Source: Podarcis vaucheri
Lineage: Eukaryota
Direction: 5' to 3' (one strand)
DNA length: 64,000 nucleotides
NCBI GenBank assembly: GCA_965113315.1
Contig: OZ220368.1
Below, piece after piece: positions 1,709 through 58,817 of the stretch (position 1 is its first letter; each line of letters starts with the position of its first letter). Made by a program: the position numbers and the translations under genes. Below the pieces are notes generated by a model. That model saw only the letters and a list, made by a program, of their open reading frames with translations, ran no database searches and was not told the DNA's origin.

Positions 1709-7093
<5,385 letters not shown>

Positions 7094-39900: not shown

Positions 39901-40062
39901 CAGCACAAATTAGTTATACATGCAGATGTAGTAAGTTACTCATCATCAGTTGTCTGCATCAAAAAAAAAAAAAGTTGATCTGTTAACTTAAATACCACTC
40001 TGTAATTGCAAAAAAGTTGTAGCTGTTGACATTCTGATGGGTTTTTAAAAAATGTATTTACT

Positions 40063-40298
40063 GTAAAGGTAAAGGGACCCCTGACCATTAGGTCCAGTTG
40101 TGGCCGACTCTGGGGTTGCGGCGCTCATCTCGCTTTACTGGCCAAGGGAGCCGGCGTACAGCTTCCAGGTCATGTGGCCAGCATGACTAAGCCGCTTCTG
40201 GCGAACCAGAGCAGTGCACAGAAATGCTGTTTACCTTCCCGCCAGAGCAGTACCTATTTATCTACTTGCACTTTGACATGCTTTCGAACTGCTAGGTT
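40063..40298 (-). mobile_element. Sauria SINE, 5'-truncated
   Basis: Near-identical to 25636-25863. Confidence 0.9.
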
Positions 40299-40574
40299 GT
40301 ACTTAGAAGCAAACAGTGCTTGCATGTAGCGGCCGGGGAAAATATCTGCGTCATAGGCACATGGCTCTTAGTTCCACAGCCCTAAGCAGCCCATCCTGTA
40401 AGCATTTACATGACTACTTCGTATCTAACCCAGTGCTGCACCTCTGACAAATCTCCGTTTTGGCAAATAGGACTCTGAAGATCATGCAAGCACAGCTGTT
40501 ATAAGCGCCTGACCAATGCAGTTGATCAGACTACGTGAGATTTTTTTAAACCAATCCCTACAGTAGCTCTATAC

Positions 40575-50500: not shown

Positions 50501-53500
50501 CAAGGGCTCTGCATAACCTCTGTAGCACTTCAAGATTTTAATAACTCAAATATAAAATGGAATCCTGATTACAGGAAGACTTCTAAAATGTGTTCAAGTG
50601 AAGACACTTACAAGCCCCAATCAAACCTCACACTTAAGTGCAGCAAGGTCAGGGGTCAGTGAACATAGCCAAATGCCTCTAATAATATTTCAATTTAACA
50701 GTACCCAAAGAAGCTTAGAAAGTCATTAATATGGTGGCACTTTAAAAAGTCGACCATTTAATAAGATATAGAATTGTAATGCTCTACCTCTACACAAATA
50801 TTATGCTGGTGTGTCCAGCTGTATTGCTATTAAGGGACATTACATGTCATAATTTGTACTTAGGTGCTTAAGCTGGAATATACTGCTACCCATTTCCTGG
50901 AGGAAGAAAAGGTTTTTAAAAGCTCCACATACTCTGCAATGTATACAGTTTGATCTTCAAAACAATGGCACCATCAGTATACATGGCATTTTACCAAACA
51001 AGAGGCAAGTCCCTGCCTGCAGGAGTTAAGAATACATGGCACTGAGGTGACTAAGAGAAAAGAACATGACTACATTCTGCACTGCATAGTTAAATTTCAG
51101 TATGGGAAAAGCTGGTACTAATTATATGATCAGCTGAGAGATCAGAATCAGTAAAGAGTTTTGTGAACTCAACTGTACGGCAAGCATTAAAACTTTCCTG
51201 TAAAATAAATTTAAGGAGTATTACCTCCGCCGTTTGAATGGTGACTTTGGCATATCAGCTGTTGGGATCATCTGTTCTCCTGGTCTTACCCACATTATGG
51301 GGCCATCATCACTTTGTGACCTGCATTGAAGTCTGAGGCTAGAAAGAGTACCCCAAGGTAAAGTCATCTGTATAAAGCAAAAGAAATCCAAATCAGGTGG
51401 TCAGCAAGACAAAATGCTACTGAACAGAGGTACAGCTTCCTTATTGAAAAGAAACCTACACACAGAGAGAGAGAGATGTGTTTATAAAACCAGGATTATA
51501 CTACATGGATATATACACAAAATATGTCATATATATTCCACTCAGTCATGTGAAAACAGTGGGGTGGAGTGGGAAACCTCAGGCGTGGGGGCTGAATGCA
51601 AGACACACCTTCACCAGCTCTGCTTTGAGTCCTCCTCAAACGATCTTGCCTGGTTAGAATGTGTTATTGGGCTGTGGTAACATCTCTTGCTTAGTTGGAT
51701 TTGTGGGGGTAAAACAACTCTGAATTTTGATACACGGAATGAAGCCTACTGTACAAAAGATAGGAACCACATCATTTCACCCCCGGCCATGACCACCACT
51801 GTCATGTGACCCCCTCCCCACAAAAGAAGCCCCATTATGGAATGCCTCAGGCTGAGGAAAGTTCCCCGGTCCTGTAGTAGGCAGACTCATGTATTCATTA
51901 TTATGCTTAACCATTCTGTGATTAATAATACGTTACAGGTTCTCATATGCAATAAAGTTAATTCTTACACGAAGAAATGGAGATTCTTCCAACATATCAA
52001 GAAATTCTGGGAAATAGTCTCCAACTTCTTCATCTACTGCTCCAACAAGACTGATCTGCCTCATCGGACCTGCTCTGTAGGTTCCACAGCAGTATGTTCG
52101 ACTGACCTGTACAAATAAAGCAAAAATGTGTTTTTACTCCATACCATAGCATATACTTGATATAGTGTACTATGTTATTGTGAAGTCTAAATGAGTAATG
52201 GAATTGACTGAATATAGTGAAGAAATAAGCACTTGGATGTGCAAGTGAATTTCTTCTTTTTGTAGGCAATTGGTTACAAAGCAGGTTGGGCCCTTCTGAG
52301 CATAGATCATACAGCATTCATCTGCAGGGAAGAGCCATTACCACCCTGCATGAGGGAACCACCAAAACATCTAGAGAAAACTGAAGAACCGTGGACAGTC
52401 TTAAAGAAGGCAAACAATTTGAACTAAAGGTGACAATCAAATGGAGAAGAATGAACTGAAGAAAAAATTCCCCTGGTAGGTATCAAAACAAGTTGATTAG
52501 GCAGGTGCCCTGAACTGACATTATACCACCCTGAACAATACCGAAAAGGAAACAAAAGTTGAAACACATCTGTACATCCAAGTTTTTGTATTTCACCCAA
52601 AATGCTGTAACAAAAAGGATTCTAAGTGGAAAACTAGTGTAATTTCCTAAAGTCATCTCTTGTCAAGGAAACATATTTTTTTTTAATTATTATTATTATT
52701 ATTAGTAGTAGTAGTAGTAGTAATTGTGTATCCAAATACTAAAAAGTGGCTTTCTTAAATTTACCTGTGGTGGAGAAAGATAGCTACCCAATTGGCATCC
52801 TAAGAGACAAGGTTGATGAAGCATAGCAGTAAATAAACATTTAAGCTACTTTGGGAGCAATCCTATGCATCTCGGTGTACAGGCTATTGTGGAATTCCCC
52901 TGCTGTCTCCTCCCCACCGCCACCACGAGCAGAAAGGGAGGTCCACTCCAGACACCTCCACATTGCAAAGTTTCCCCACTATGGATTCGTCTGCCACCAT
53001 CTTCCGAAGATTTTTATGTAGAGTAAATTAACAGTTCATTGTAAACACCAAAGGTATGTTGTTCTAACTATGTATAGTAGAGGGGAAAGGAAGGAAGAAT
53101 CTGTGTGAAAGCTCAATGCCCTTACACCTTCAGAGTGGCATTTAAGCAGCTCTGAAGTCTAAACTGGATTTCATTCAGAAGCATATAGAATTACAGAATC
53201 GTAGAGTTGGAAGGGATGCATTACATACCATATTGGCCCAAATATGAGCCGCACCTGAATATAAGCCACACTTTTAAAATTCAAGGGGGGAAAAGAAGAA
53301 AAAGACAATACCTGAATATAAGCCGCTCCCTTAAAATTCCACAGGCAATCACACCTGTTCTGTTTTACCATATGTCTGTTTCAGCAGCGATATCGTAAAA
53401 GCCAGTTTTTGTAAGGTCGCAAATTTAAGCCGCACTTTAACTTTTCATGGTTGGAATTTGGGAAAAAGTGAGGCTTATATTCAGGCAAATACGGTAATAT

Positions 53501-56224
53501 TTTGCACTTGGGTTCAAATGTTTAAATAAAATGCGCGTACATTTTTCACCTGTTGTGAAGGAAACATGCACATTTTAACTGAAGTTTATCCCAGAACAAA
53601 GGCAATAATAAAGAATGGATCTTTCCCCTGCATACAAGCATGTGTTTTGCCCATAGGGATAATTTAACCATTTATGTACCCTTCACAATTGATCTCAAGA
53701 CTGAACATTCTGTATTCTGATATTGATACCAGAGTGCAAGTAGTTTTTTAAAAAAATATATATATTAAATGTTCATTAATCATTCTTTATCAGACAGTCA
53801 CAGAGGCAGTGTACAACCAACAAAACAAAAGGCAAGCTTAAAACAAGTAGAGGAATCCTACCACCTAATGAGGCTGACCTGGAATTCCAAGATACTTAAG
53901 CAATGTCCTGAACATCAGCTTTCATTTGAAAAAAAACAAAACAAGAAACTTGCAGAGAAGATATTGACTGCAATAAAAAACTTTACAGTCATACCTCAGG
54001 TTAAAGTAGCTTCAGGTTAAATCTTTTCAGGTTGCGTCCCCCGGCGACCCAGAAGTAACTGAATGGGTTACTTCTGGGTTTCACCACTGGCACAGACGCT
54101 CAAAATGACGTCACACAAATGCACAGAAGCGGTGAATCGTGACCTGCGCAGACGCGGGTTGCGTTCTGCTCAGGATGCGAACAGGGCTCCGGAACGGATC
54201 CCCTTCGCATCCAGAGGTACCACTGTATTTGGCAAACATCCTTCTAGACTAGCCTAAGAGGACGTAGACTTAGGCTAAGACCTATATTACCAAGGTTATA
54301 GCTTCAGAAAGGGAAGAGAAACTTTGAAGCCAAGCCAAGAAACGTACTAGTGTGGAAGGAACTGTTGGAAGGAACACATGGAAATTGGATAATGTTGAAC
54401 AAGCCTGTGGACAATAAATGACCAGTACAGGATGGATGTTCACACACAGCAACAATAGCAGTAAATGCACCTATTGTTCCTTTTTCTTAATTGCATTTGC
54501 AGAAATTTGAACAAGTTTACTTAACTGAGTTACAAAGTAAAAAAAAATTAGTGTTGAGCTGAAAACCTTCTTCTGACAGTTCAAAATAGGTCCATATCAC
54601 ATGACTTTTAGACCAGCACACCTAAAAGAGCATGAAAATTTGGGGACACATGTCCATCCCCCCAGAACACCTGTTGTCTCAATTGCAATTGGACAGTCTA
54701 GAAAACACTTTAAAAACCTGTATGTTTCAGTGCCAAAAGATCAATATGCACTTTCCACTGAAACCAATGAAATGTCAGAACAGAGCTGGTTAACCTGTGG
54801 CGCTTCATATGCTGCTAAACTACAGCTCCCATAATAATAATTTTCTGACTTGAGCAATTTTAGAATATACATATATAGCATTAGGATCAAAGTACATTAG
54901 AGCTAGGGAGGCTCTCAAAACAATTATGTCAGTTAGAAAAATATGGAATATAATGTCTAATAAAAATAAAATTGATCAATTTACTCATGGCTAAATTGAC
55001 TTTGTGGGGAAACCCAATTTTAAAAATTGAGGGAAAGATGGTAATATGGAAAAATTGCACAGAAGCAAGCATACTGACTTTGAACCAACTGACAGATGAG
55101 AAAGATGAATTTTACACATTCTTTTAAGAGACAACTCTATAAGCCCAATGGAAATATTTGCAGCTGCAACACATGGTAACAACTTTGTTTGGACCAGCAG
55201 CTTTTACAGCTTCTGAGGTACCAGAGATATTAGAACTGATCAAATACTTTGAAACTAAAAAGCCTGCAAGTACTTTTTATAGATATTTGCTATCAATGAA
55301 TCAATCCGAAACACAGATTTTAAGAAATGAGTGGAACAAAGAATTGGATGTTCCTGTATTACCTAGATAGTGGGAAAGTGTTTCAGCTTCCTTAGTAAAG
55401 GTGTCTATGGATCTGAAATTATAACTTATGCAACAGAAAATGTTTACAATCTACTGGACTCTATTATGTTTATATAGAAAAAGACTGTCTAAACCAGCAT
55501 GTTGTTTGATATGTAATAAACATAATGCTTCTTTAAAACACATTGACAATCACTTACTAAGTTTTCAGAGAAAGTATTGGATTGTATAAACATGACTGTG
55601 CAGAATTGGTTAGAATTTTCAGAGGTAAATATTCTATTGAATTATGTACCTACTATATGAAATTTGACAAGTAGACAATATAAATGTATTTTTTGTGCCC
55701 TTACTAAAAAGGTAAAGGATCCCTGGACAGTCAAGTCCAGTCAAAGGTGACTATGGGGTGCGGCACTCAACTTGCTTCAGGCCGAGGGAGCCAGCATTTG
55801 TCCACAAACAGCTTTCCAGGTCATGTCACCAGCATGACTAAACCACTTCTGGTGCAACGGAACACCGTGACAGAAGCCAGAATGCACAGAAACACCATTT
55901 ACCTTCCCACTGCAGCAGTACCTATTTATCTACTTACACTAGTATGCTTTTGAACAGAGCAACAGGAGCACACCACCGTCATGCGGATTGGAACTGCCAA
56001 CCTTCCGACCAGCAAGCCAAGAGGCTCAGTGGTTTAGACCTTACTATGGCCAAGAGACTGATACTGATGCACTGGAAGGATAAATCTATGGCCTCTTTTA
56101 GTCAATGGATTAAGGATATGGCAACACTTGCAACTTATGGATTGCTTATAGTTATAGACTTTGTATGGACAAGTATAAAGATATTTGGAACATGTTTATA
56201 AAAAACATAGGTTATAAATAATCA

Positions 56225-56280
<56 letters not shown>

Positions 56281-56628
56281 GGTTTTGGTGTCTTCGGGTG
56301 TCTTCCCGTGTAAGAGTCGGGGTGTCTGTGCGACGTTTCGACGAGGTCTCACTCGTCATCTTCAAAAAAATAGTTTCTCGTAGGTTCTTGTCAGCTGGAA
56401 GGTTTCCTCCCCGTAGAGGTGAGATATTTGCTTTCGTAGATTTTCACGGGTACAGGAATGCAGGTTTTGGTGTCTGTGCGACGTTTCGACGAGGTCTCAC
56501 TCGTCATCTTCTTGAAGATGACGAGTGAGACCTCGTCGAAACGTCGCACAGACACCCCGACTCTTACACGGGAAGACACCCGAAGACACCAAAACCTGCA
56601 TTCCTGTACCCGTGAAAATCTACGAAAG

Positions 56629-56671
<43 letters not shown>

Positions 56672-57841
56672 CATTTATATACCTATATACTAGACAAGCA
56701 TATATGGAGTTATAGCTGCTTGAATATATAGTGATATAATATATGTTCATCCACCTTTACTTCTTTTTTATTATTATTATTTTATTATTATTATTTCCAG
56801 TATATTTTGTTCAATTGAAATATTCTCAGTAATAATAATAACAACTCATGTTTGTTCAATGACAGGCTGGAAATGGGAAAGTAGGAAACTATGGTTCAAA
56901 AAGGCTGTGTACTAGTTGGAGTGGTAAGGCATTCAGAAGCAGCCTAGATAGCACAAAATCTACATGGCTTTAAATTGCAGGGACTATCATCCTATATACA
57001 GACAAAGTTATAGGTTTGTTATTGAAGGAAAGGTAGTTGGAAGGCAGTAGCTGACAGAATTGCCTAGATTTTGGTTCGTGTTTCTGCCCTAGCGCTCCTT
57101 TGTGAGTTTCTCAGGTGAATGATATGCTTAGTTTCCAATACTCTTGGGTCTTTAGGATGACATCTCTTACCTGAGCATGAAAGTTTGAAATGGTTGTTGT
57201 TTCAATATCCTTCTTGCCAAGGATTTCCATTTTCACTGGAGTGTTAGGAAAATTAAAAGCAAAGTAATCCAAGAAGTCTGGCAAGTAGGCAGCTGCCCCA
57301 TGAACTATAGCTAGAGCATAGTATGCTGCATTTTTCTCATTTTCACTGAATGTCAAAGCAAGAAACTCTTCTGCAAATCTCTCCATCTCCACTGGAGACA
57401 AAAATGAGAGTTCATCCATGTAGGCATGAAGAACTAGAGCTCCTCCATTTGACTGACGCTCTTCATGAATAAAGTTACTAAATTTAGTGCCTGTTTTTAA
57501 GAAGCTGCTGCGAACAGAATGCTCCTGGTGTGTAGTAAATGGAGACTGCACCCCCTGGGGTATCCTATATTCCTGCACGCCCAAATTCAACTGACATAGC
57601 TGCTCATCTTTTAGGTACCTAAAAGATTCCTTATTTTCTTCCAAGTTATCACTCTCCCCTGGAGTCAAAATCTCTTTGTTGATACGGGTAAGACCAGCAC
57701 ACACAGTCTGCACTTCTTTATTATACATTTTCAGATGCCTCCCCCTCATATCTTCTCTGTGTTTCTTTTTCTTCTTTTTCTTTATTTTCTTTACAATAAG
57801 ACTGTCAGCTCTCTGGGTCTTGCCATTTTCATCTCGGCTTT
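47138..57841 (-). CDS. RSBN1: RSBN1 (round spermatid basic protein 1 / KDM9 family), 5'-partial; six coding exons
   Basis: complement(join(47138..47500,48932..49040,50139..50306,51225..51367,51969..52106,57171..57841)); phases consistent. Contains [41 protein letters not shown] and [23 protein letters not shown]. Adjacency to PHTF1 supports RSBN1 over RSBN1L. Exon 1 is beyond the window. Confidence 0.95.
48932..49040 (-). CDS. RSBN1: RSBN1 exon ([18 protein letters not shown]...HEPPVSQ)
   Basis: AG/GT boundaries, 109 bp. Confidence 0.93.
49128..49483 (-). mobile_element. Sauria SINE (second subfamily)
   Basis: taaaggacccctggatgttaag...ggtacctatttatctacttgca...ggattcaaacc; flanked by tctaaatgta repeats. 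Confidence 0.85.
49571..49826 (+). mobile_element. tRNA-derived squamate SINE (Squam3-like) with (TTC)n tail
   Basis: A box tggtgtagtggttaagagc, degenerate B box, LINE-derived tail agccgctttgagactcc. Confidence 0.8.
50139..50306 (-). CDS. RSBN1: RSBN1 exon ([19 protein letters not shown]...AVQFGE)
   Basis: AG/GT boundaries, 168 bp. Confidence 0.93.
51225..51367 (-). CDS. RSBN1: RSBN1 exon ([11 protein letters not shown]...KSPFKRR)
   Basis: AG/GT boundaries, 143 bp. Confidence 0.93.
51969..52106 (-). CDS. RSBN1: RSBN1 exon ([13 protein letters not shown]...ESPFLR)
   Basis: AG/GT boundaries, 138 bp. Confidence 0.93.
53228..53494. mobile_element. pogo/Tigger-like MITE
   Basis: TA|CCATATTGGCCCAAATATGAGCC...GGCTTATATTCAGGCAAATACGG|TA. 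Confidence 0.75.
53986..54225. mobile_element. Tc1/mariner-type MITE
   Basis: TA|CAGTCATACCTC...GAGGTACCACTG|TA. Confidence 0.8.
54900..56220 (+). mobile_element. Decayed L1-clade ORF2 C-terminal fragment, split by a Sauria SINE
   Basis: Remnants NEWNKEL...W, C..C...ASLKH and [14 protein letters not shown]...QWIKDM, typical of the L1/Tx1 zinc-binding C-terminal region; many stops. Confidence 0.7.
55707..56040 (-). mobile_element. Sauria SINE inserted in the L1 fragment
   Basis: aaggtaaaggatccctggacag...ggtttagacc; TSD CCTTACTA. Confidence 0.85.
56228..56277. repeat. (TA)n microsatellite, left flank of the fold-back
   Basis: Read directly. Confidence 0.95.
56276..56635. mobile_element. Penelope-like element pseudo-LTR remnants: three copies (two on -, one on +) forming a fold-back, each with a hammerhead-like core
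   Basis: 56276-56365 is the exact reverse complement of 56512-56601. 56424-56511 is an inverted copy with a 34-bp deletion. Motif (T)TGAAGATGACGAG-TGAGAC-CTCGTCGAAACGTC. Confidence 0.75.
56632..56670. repeat. (TA)n microsatellite, right flank of the fold-back
   Basis: Read directly. Confidence 0.95.
57171..57841 (-). CDS. RSBN1: RSBN1 large coding exon (SRDENGKTQ...[11 protein letters not shown]...TTISNFHAQ)
   Basis: AG/GT boundaries, 671 bp; poly-Lys stretch resembling an NLS; overlaps ORF 57111..57749. Confidence 0.94.
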
Positions 57842-58478: not shown

Positions 58479-58548
58479 TTCTAGAATGGAAAATTCAGAT
58501 AAAATAAGCTGAGCTTGAGAAGTGATGAGCAATTGCTGGTAAACTTTC

Positions 58549-58817
58549 AAAAGGTAAAGGTAAAGGGACCCCTGACCATTAGGTCCAGTTGTGACCGACT
58601 CTGGGGTTGCGGCACTCATCTCGCTTTATTGGCTGAGGGAGCCGGCGTACAGTTTCCGGGTCATGTGGCCAGCATGACTAAGCCACTTCTGGCAAACCAG
58701 AGCAGCACACAGAAACGGCGTTTACCTTCCCGCCAGAGTATTTATCTACTTGCACTTTTTGACGTGCTTTCAAACTGCTAGGTTGGCAGGAGCAGGGACC
58801 GAGCAACGGGAGCTCAC
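58549..58817 (-). mobile_element. Sauria SINE, 5'-truncated
   Basis: aaggtaaaggtaaagggacccctgaccattagg...gagcaacgggagctcac. Confidence 0.9.

Follow-up and report, generated by a model that had tools for sequence, protein, structure and literature searches.

A three-piece insertion of a young Penelope-like element in an RSBN1 intron of Podarcis vaucheri and the insertion patterns of its family

The window analyzed here, a 64,000-nucleotide stretch of Podarcis vaucheri contig OZ220368.1, carries within a (TA)n tract of an RSBN1 intron a 360-bp structure that stems from a single insertion of a young Penelope-like element (PLE), probably of the Penelope/Poseidon type. All of it is one element, organized as arm A, a jump segment (piece B plus the adjoining spacer), and arm C (Table 1), and by base-by-base mapping 353 of its 353 templated bases are identical to an intact copy, L062. 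At its outer margins lie the two 3' ends that are fixed in the family (+84 and +118), and all three pieces stop at -5 or -4. Element numbers refer to L062, with the A of the ORF start codon as +1 and no zero; hammerhead positions C3, U4, and A9 are then -6, -5, and +1, and the cut falls between +28 and +29. The structure is probably a single recent insertion, for which the element's own enzyme likely primed from both cut ends of the (TA)n target and copied one short RNA three times.

Table 1. Features of the insertion and its surroundings in the window
Feature	Position	Strand	Element coordinates and remarks
Left (TA)25 target tract	56228..56277	.	Last AT is also element +83/+84
Arm A	56276..56364	-	Element -5..+84; 89 nt identical to L062; 3' end is the tail-less initiation site, 5' end is U4 of the hammerhead core
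Six untemplated bases	56365..56370	-	Read as T along the element strand and as A in the cDNA; site where the head-to-tail jump leads from -5 to +171
Jump segment, distal part	56371..56468	-	Element +74..+171
Section of the distal part	56371..56423	-	Element ORF +119..+171, continuous with B
Jump segment, proximal part	56469..56511	-	Element -4..+39; fused to +74 via the 34-bp deletion
Single extra T	56512..56512	+	At the head-to-head (inversion) junction
Arm C	56513..56635	+	Element -5..+118 with 34-nt tail; 123 nt identical to L062; last ATAT is also target repeat
Minimal hammerhead remnant in C	56513..56545	+	UGAAGA-U, 6-bp stem II, GAAAC-GUC; contains the ORF start codon
Matching hammerhead remnants	56332..56364 and 56480..56511	-	Same remnant as in C
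Right (TA)n target tract	56632..56670	.	
Host RSBN1 (KDM9) intron	52107..57170	-	Insertion about 535 bp from the splice donor

The flanking TA repeats and three hammerhead-like copies reported in a preliminary description of the locus are present, the latter as exact matches to a 32-nt motif at 56332-56363 (-), 56480-56511 (-), and 56514-56545 (+), with 0 expected by chance. A and C form the claimed 90-bp perfect inverse pair, and B and C a palindrome with 43-bp perfect arms, a 2-nt loop, and an additional 52-nt arm; the 34-bp deletion (+40..+73) lies, as had been noted, at a 7-nt microhomology (AGACACC). What had been taken for a 58-nt spacer between A and B was misread, and consists of ORF sequence continuous with B and the six untemplated A. 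CpGs are retained (observed/expected ratio of 1.22 versus 0.27 for the whole window), and the very recent age proposed for the event is supported, as is a microsatellite target. Pieces A and B are indeed sense in the RSBN1 pre-mRNA, because the gene is on the minus strand; RSBN1/KDM9 matches Zootoca vivipara at 99%, and a Pfam search with three RSBN1 exon pieces returned no family.

The strong fold-back anticipated for the insertion agrees with folding predictions. The RSBN1-sense strand is predicted to fold as a long duplex (-224 kcal/mol, z of -22), with a predicted C-A pairing at -190 and an alternative C-B pairing at -160, and the predicted DNA hairpin of the insertion is at -134.7 kcal/mol. 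Most likely, the insertion is a scar in the intron, neutral in effect and folding into a long hairpin. Elsewhere in the window, translated frames reveal three similar interspersed repeats (40030-40329, 55708-55953, and 58503-58781), which may belong to a Sauria-SINE-like family.

All three hammerheads are broken at the core, as first described. Where a CUGANGA core with a C3-G8 (or U3-A8) pair belongs, A and C have UUGAAGA, with U3-G8, and B has AAGAAGA; the stem I 5' strand (-8, -7) is missing in all three. Stem II (GACGAG/CUCGUC), GAAA, and the palindromic stem III with its UC cut triplet (GAAACGUC) are intact in each. A scan of the window with Rfam models, as had been suggested, gave 21 weak matches at E ≤ 10, none of them to a hammerhead family, and the miRNA matches mirror no more than the palindrome and the TA tracts. 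Changes at C3 or G8 abolish cleavage of PAc, a Penelope-like element described in PMC11167929; the window's three hammerheads, which have neither C3 nor the 5' strand of stem I, are accordingly predicted to be inactive.

The parent that had been postulated, a PLE with both reverse transcriptase (RT) and GIY-YIG, is present in the genome and upholds a Penelope-like origin. L062 is a pLTR-ORF-pLTR copy with a period of 2,961 bp and an ATG at 1506 and again at 4467, a partial tandem in which the ORF start overlaps the pLTR. Its ORF is open over 906 aa, with an RVT_1 match (E of 6.7e-15) and a weak C-terminal GIY-YIG match (E of 0.0011, under the Pfam cut-off) in which VYEIPC...YIG is visible. Among named proteins, the best matches come from Podarcis, Vipera, Anolis, and insects, with 96% identity to a Podarcis muralis protein, 82% over 481 aa to a Vipera latastei protein (P0002), and 45% over 773 aa, including the GIY-YIG region, to an Anolis carolinensis protein; no extra Cys-rich linker between RT and EN is seen in the alignment with the latter. 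The 82% protein identity between a lacertid and a viper element makes the pair a candidate to be examined for horizontal transfer.

The family is abundant and young, with 12,423 exact matches to a 24-mer from copy C in the 1.6-Gb genome and a median identity to L062 of 99.3% (284 segments). Its intact hammerhead has a CUGAAGA core, one extra base ahead of stem II, a 6-bp stem II, a palindromic ACGU stem III, and a 2-bp stem I, and the ORF start codon lies inside it (CUGAAG-AUG-A). Among 11,572 copies bearing UGAAGA, 11,253 keep CAGC[C/T] 5' of it, so full-length copies do carry the CUGANGA core and truncation there is a minority state. A tail of 34 nt, between the +84 and +118 3' ends, is as a rule present at one end only.

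The family is also varied in several respects. Targets are (AAT)n or otherwise AT-rich rather than (TA)n at L062:1126-1171 and 4550-4563 (the intact copy itself), L097, L100, L111, L254, and L260, and newer insertions have landed beside older ones in one TA tract at L019, L024, L090, L110, and L129. A 69-bp pLTR deletion (-226 to -157, with a 4-nt microhomology) recurs at L068, L083, L090, L135, L159, L161, L181, and L193; it is present in both arms of an insertion and marks a sub-lineage that itself transposes. In another sub-lineage (L197 and L217) the sequence from the ORF end to -135 is swapped for 8 other letters, again in both arms. Runs X21, X23, and X24 from a related species contain a sister subfamily, mostly 90 to 99% alike, with the same +84 and +118 ends reaching into TA, and thus the two start sites are kept across species.

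The inverted layout is no oddity but the standard insertion of this family. The sample of 130 loci comprises 43 regions from the first listed matches on contig C1 and 87 others; a +84/(AT)n pattern has 227 matches, and these 87 are taken from the first 100 of them. From these loci, 232 chains were found, and removal of 45 that were duplicates or cut at the locus edge leaves 187 unique chains, of which 132 are head-to-head, 48 have one orientation, and 7 are other. TA is present on both sides in 126 of the 132 head-to-head chains, and 69 are no longer than 400 bp. Outer arms end at +84 (n=166) or +118 (n=136), and 120 of the 132 have one end of each type (6 are +84/+84 and 6 are +118/+118); the +84-anchored sampling forces one +84 end but leaves the scarcity of +84/+84 pairs unaccounted for. 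The head-to-head inverted shape of PLE insertions is already published (PMC3846280; PMC8557442).

The two arms of an insertion resemble each other in both length and sequence. Among 109 simple two-arm insertions, 5' reach is correlated between arms (rho of 0.71) and the arm 5' ends are within 10 nt in 38 (shuffle mean 10.5, maximum 20); without the -43 to -36 hotspot, 14 of 77 are this close (shuffle mean 3.0, maximum 11). Alleles at 11 polymorphic sites are concordant between arms in 281 of 289 comparisons (shuffle mean 65%, maximum 75%), with discordance at one or more sites in 7 of 94 insertions, two of them only at +114, at the 3' junction. Rare variants are in both arms in 43 cases and in one arm in 33 (21,560 bases compared). 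Many pairs are strongly unequal, with differences up to 2 kb, and the +84 arm has the longer 5' reach in 61 of 101 pairs, the same in 18, and the shorter in 22. The one-tail rule, the allele sharing, and the 5'-end correlation together favor priming from both ends on one sense RNA, and twin priming on one RNA is the best reading of the family's paired arms, with the shared alleles equally compatible with two RNAs from one source locus or with later homogenization of the arms.

At two loci (L202:505-585 and L094:5193-8140) both arms extend, in inverted form, into one shared stretch of non-family or older-family sequence; copying of the two from a single chimeric RNA would give this result. A palindrome of about 284 bp, with arms ending at -42 and a 2-nt GC overlap, is present in many independent insertions genome-wide (e.g., L064, L084, L095, L166, L173, L203, L212, and L215), and these would resemble a MITE family to an annotation pipeline.

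Inverted arms of the same element could also have arisen by self-priming or fold-back, either through snap-back of the cDNA or, in the proposal of Arkhipova et al. (2013, PMC3846280), through self-priming that uses an antisense template. Such a process accounts for the shared alleles and matching 5' ends; overlaps of 1 to 5 nt are found at 63 of 109 inversion junctions, and on the antisense strand the TATA motif reads TATAAATA. We nevertheless consider it unlikely. A fold-back copy cannot hold what the first arm lacks, and since the arm without the tail has the greater 5' reach in 61 of 101 pairs and the tail is confined to the other, neither arm is simply a fold-back copy of its partner. Furthermore, symmetric junctions (e.g., -42/-42 and +29/+29) overlap by 2 nt without a loop, and PAc primes both strands on sense RNA in vitro (PMC11167929).

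The family has preferred 5' ends, counted genome-wide as junctions with two non-reference letters directly 5' of a position, using patterns of the same design. The most common is -42, with 548 junctions; it sits 29 nt downstream of TATTTATA and is likely the transcription start. A second peak is at -5, with 78 junctions, part of which could instead be -4 ends next to an extra T, whether added or belonging to the TA tract (-9, -8, -6, and -4 have 9, 24, 23, and 19, respectively), and a third is at +29, with 70 (+16, +24, +28, and +30 have 17, 23, 4, and 14). When matches lying within 1 kb of each other are merged manually, about 55 events remain at +29, 72 at -5, 20 at -8, and 19 at +24.

The +29 position is the exact 5' end of the predicted hammerhead 3' product, and both arms end there in 10 of 40 chains (the first 40 regions listed for +29). 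The peak is possibly a trace of hammerhead self-cleavage in the animal, a suggestion drawn from genomic sequence. Palindromic microhomology alone was rejected as its cause, with only 4 junctions at the CG of +28, 24 at the GC of -8, and 23 at the ACGT of +24. For -5, no TATA-like motif is present in the sequence 30 nt above it. Zn-dependent cleavage between C3 and U4, the subject of work by Borda et al. in 2003, reportedly requires high pH and an earlier cut at A9, and it was not adopted as the source of the -5 end.

RNA reads of a related species show no pile of molecule starts at -42, -5, or +29, although low depth and fragmented libraries make this uninformative; the reads come from both strands and pass into TA at +84 and +118, the pattern that host transcripts containing insertions would give. 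No census of PLE 5' ends or arm pairing was found in the open-access literature, and subscription papers or bioRxiv supplements may contain one.

Head-to-tail jumps are the second recurrent feature of the family. For the -5 class, 77 of 78 sites were retrieved, giving 73 chains, and jumps to between +60 and +260 are found in 18 of these versus 3 of the 187 chains of the general sample (Fisher P of 1.4e-8), with selection by junction letters favoring multi-junction arrays and somewhat inflating such shares. Jumps are present in 5 of 19 chains of the -4 class and, by the script's rule, in 6 of 40 of the +29 class (5 of these from +29); over all retrieved loci there are 39 chains with such jumps. 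Landing sites cluster at about +150 and +181, and lesser clusters are seen around +76, +109, and +210; the densest 5-nt window holds 9 sites (P of 0.00085), while general clustering relative to a uniform 70-219 range is not significant (P of 0.22). The window's +171 is not among the common landing sites (about +150, +181, and +109). It lies close to the length of the minimal PAc RNA, which is the first 172 nt of its ORF (PMC11167929), and this may be coincidence.

The RNA of the intact pLTR-ORF junction is predicted to fold no more stably than shuffles (z of -0.34), and the pairing in this fold between -10..-1 and +143..+152 gives no more than a lead on the +150 landing cluster. From +84 and +118, the two chief start sites, through +150, +181, and +213, the chief landing sites, the intervals are 31 to 34 nt, suggestive of a 32-nt periodicity, and the deletion in the window is also 34 nt; this may be chance.

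Template jumping by the R2 RT requires untemplated addition (PMC8857657), and untemplated A/T are found at several of the jumps here. Head-to-tail pLTR units of 155 to 211 bp are present at L001, L012, and L015-L018. Within a single array at L001, the untemplated letters vary from unit to unit, a pattern that fits RT jumping and not a copied circle, whereas the four identical junctions of L015-L018 fit either. A circular-RNA origin of the tandems is thus compatible with L015-L018 and is rejected for L001 and L012, in which junctions vary between units. At three further loci, jumps to +152..+181 from -42 (L075), -108 (L190), and -41 (L222) yield head-to-tail units with intact hammerheads; these are the nearest thing to a newborn retrozyme dimer.

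At the window locus, the twin-primed insertion that we favor would proceed as follows. The GIY-YIG endonuclease would cut both strands of the TA tract, and the two DNA ends would prime on the same RNA, one at +84 and the second at +118; this RNA could be copied no further 5' than -5, inside the hammerhead core. RT extending the +84 arm would reach -5, add six A, jump back to +171, and copy again to -4, with 34 nt either skipped at the microhomology during the second copying or deleted later. The two cDNA 3' ends would then be joined head to head, each serving as a template for the second strand of the other. An early suggestion that the structure is a template-switching product is supported.

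A simple head-to-head insertion might instead have come first, with the third piece and the 34-bp deletion added by later DNA rearrangement of an unstable palindrome. Long perfect palindromes are unstable, the DNA hairpin predicted here is strong (-134.7 kcal/mol), and the deletion is unique and has 7 nt of microhomology. The scenario is improbable, because +119..+171 of the middle piece is in neither outer arm and so needed element RNA or another copy as a template; moreover, the jump junction consists of six untemplated bases without homology, and like jumps recur in 39 chains. The 34-bp deletion alone may be postinsertional.

The proposal that A-spacer-B-C is a nonautonomous, MITE-like or retrozyme-like unit that spreads as such has very little probability. 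The insertion is short, noncoding, and pLTR derived with inverted ends, the family does contain head-to-tail pLTR units of 155 to 211 bp, and retrozymes have been proposed as pLTR derivatives (bioRxiv 10.64898/2026.07.22.740005). But its deletion junction has 1 match genome-wide, namely the window itself, a search for further copies of the layout found none among the other 72 of the 73 chains with a -5 end, and what look like inverted ends of a unit are the 3' ends usual in the family; none of its units has the intact core that the preprint demands of an active retrozyme. An assembly artifact at the TA repeats is scarcely credible despite the trouble that PLE inverted structures cause short-read assemblies (PMC8557442), in that the locus is within a 108-Mb contig, the same head-to-head architecture is in 132 of 187 chains, contigs of run X1 (possibly the very sample behind the assembly) show loose ends at -42, -5, +29, +84, and +118, and a chimera does not typically have untemplated bases and a microhomology deletion.

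The window locus itself is ordinary, one of thousands of insertions of known shape, with ribozymes predicted to be dead; the family is young and abundant enough to read PLE mechanism from the genome. A broader interpretation, offered tentatively and at rather less than an even chance, is that about 12,000 near-identical young copies record the Penelope cycle in vivo: priming from both ends at +84 and +118, reverse transcription to RNA 5' ends at -42, +29, and -5, and jumps back to about +109, +150, +181, and +210 to give head-to-tail pLTR units, with this locus as one such product that holds one RNA copied three times. The family counts predict that both arms come from one RNA, that 5' ends lie at -42, -5, and +29, and that jumps land at defined sites, and they suggest a concrete route from a PLE to retrozyme-like tandem units. 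If this interpretation is true, the +29 peak would record in the genome the cleavage of a PLE hammerhead in an animal, -5 would be an end not described before, falling between C3 and U4 of the core, and the head-to-tail units would be the birth step of retrozyme-like arrays. The mechanism behind tandem and inverted PLE insertions has been called undefined (PMC8557442), and evidence for an in vivo role of the PLE hammerhead has been lacking (PMC4209133; PMC11167929).

The closest described system is PAc (Poseidon_Ac) of Anolis carolinensis, which likewise has one ORF with RT plus GIY-YIG at its C terminus, a start codon inside the hammerhead, a cut site about 26 to 28 nt into the ORF, two internal RT start sites bounding a 30- to 40-nt tail, and an AT-rich target; PAc, which is predicted to be a dimer, itself cuts and extends both strands (PMC11167929). 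The nearest Anolis protein, which may or may not be PAc itself, is, however, only 45% identical to the L062 ORF. A further difference is at the cut site, where Frangieh et al. (2024, PMC11167929) found no RNA-seq reads to end, whereas genomic copies peak there in this family (70 versus 4 and 14 at the adjacent positions). The accessible text of that paper contains no census of 5' ends, arm pairing, or jumps.

Inverted pLTR insertions of EN+ PLEs (PMC3846280; PMC8557442) share the head-to-head inverted 5'-truncated copy with a tail at one end, the microsatellite or AT-rich targets, and the complex tandem and inverted structures. The mechanism is described there as undefined or as antisense-RNA self-priming (Craig et al., 2021; Arkhipova et al., 2013), whereas here features of the pairing are counted. 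The intact family motif is as in the minimal hammerheads of metazoan PLEs, such as that of D. virilis (Cervera and De la Pena, 2014, PMC4209133), from which the window's three copies differ in lacking C3 and stem I. That work attributes tandems to circular RNA closed by ligation at the cut site; in the present family, most tandem units start at -5 and end variably, often with untemplated bases, and RT jumping therefore fits better.

Non-LTR retrozymes (Li, Clavereau, and Pollet, 2026, bioRxiv 10.64898/2026.07.22.740005) are similarly composed of head-to-tail, pLTR-derived units of 150 to 210 bp with a hammerhead motif, but active ones form families and have complete hammerheads in at least two consecutive units. 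The window has two head-to-tail pieces (B plus spacer, and A) with broken cores, in a unique arrangement. The two primed pieces in L1 twin priming cover different parts of the RNA, whereas the window pieces overlap fully, starting at two fixed internal sites 34 nt apart. With L1 twin priming the insertion would share the use of two target ends on one RNA, and with template jumping by the R2 RT (PMC8857657) the addition of untemplated bases followed by a jump.
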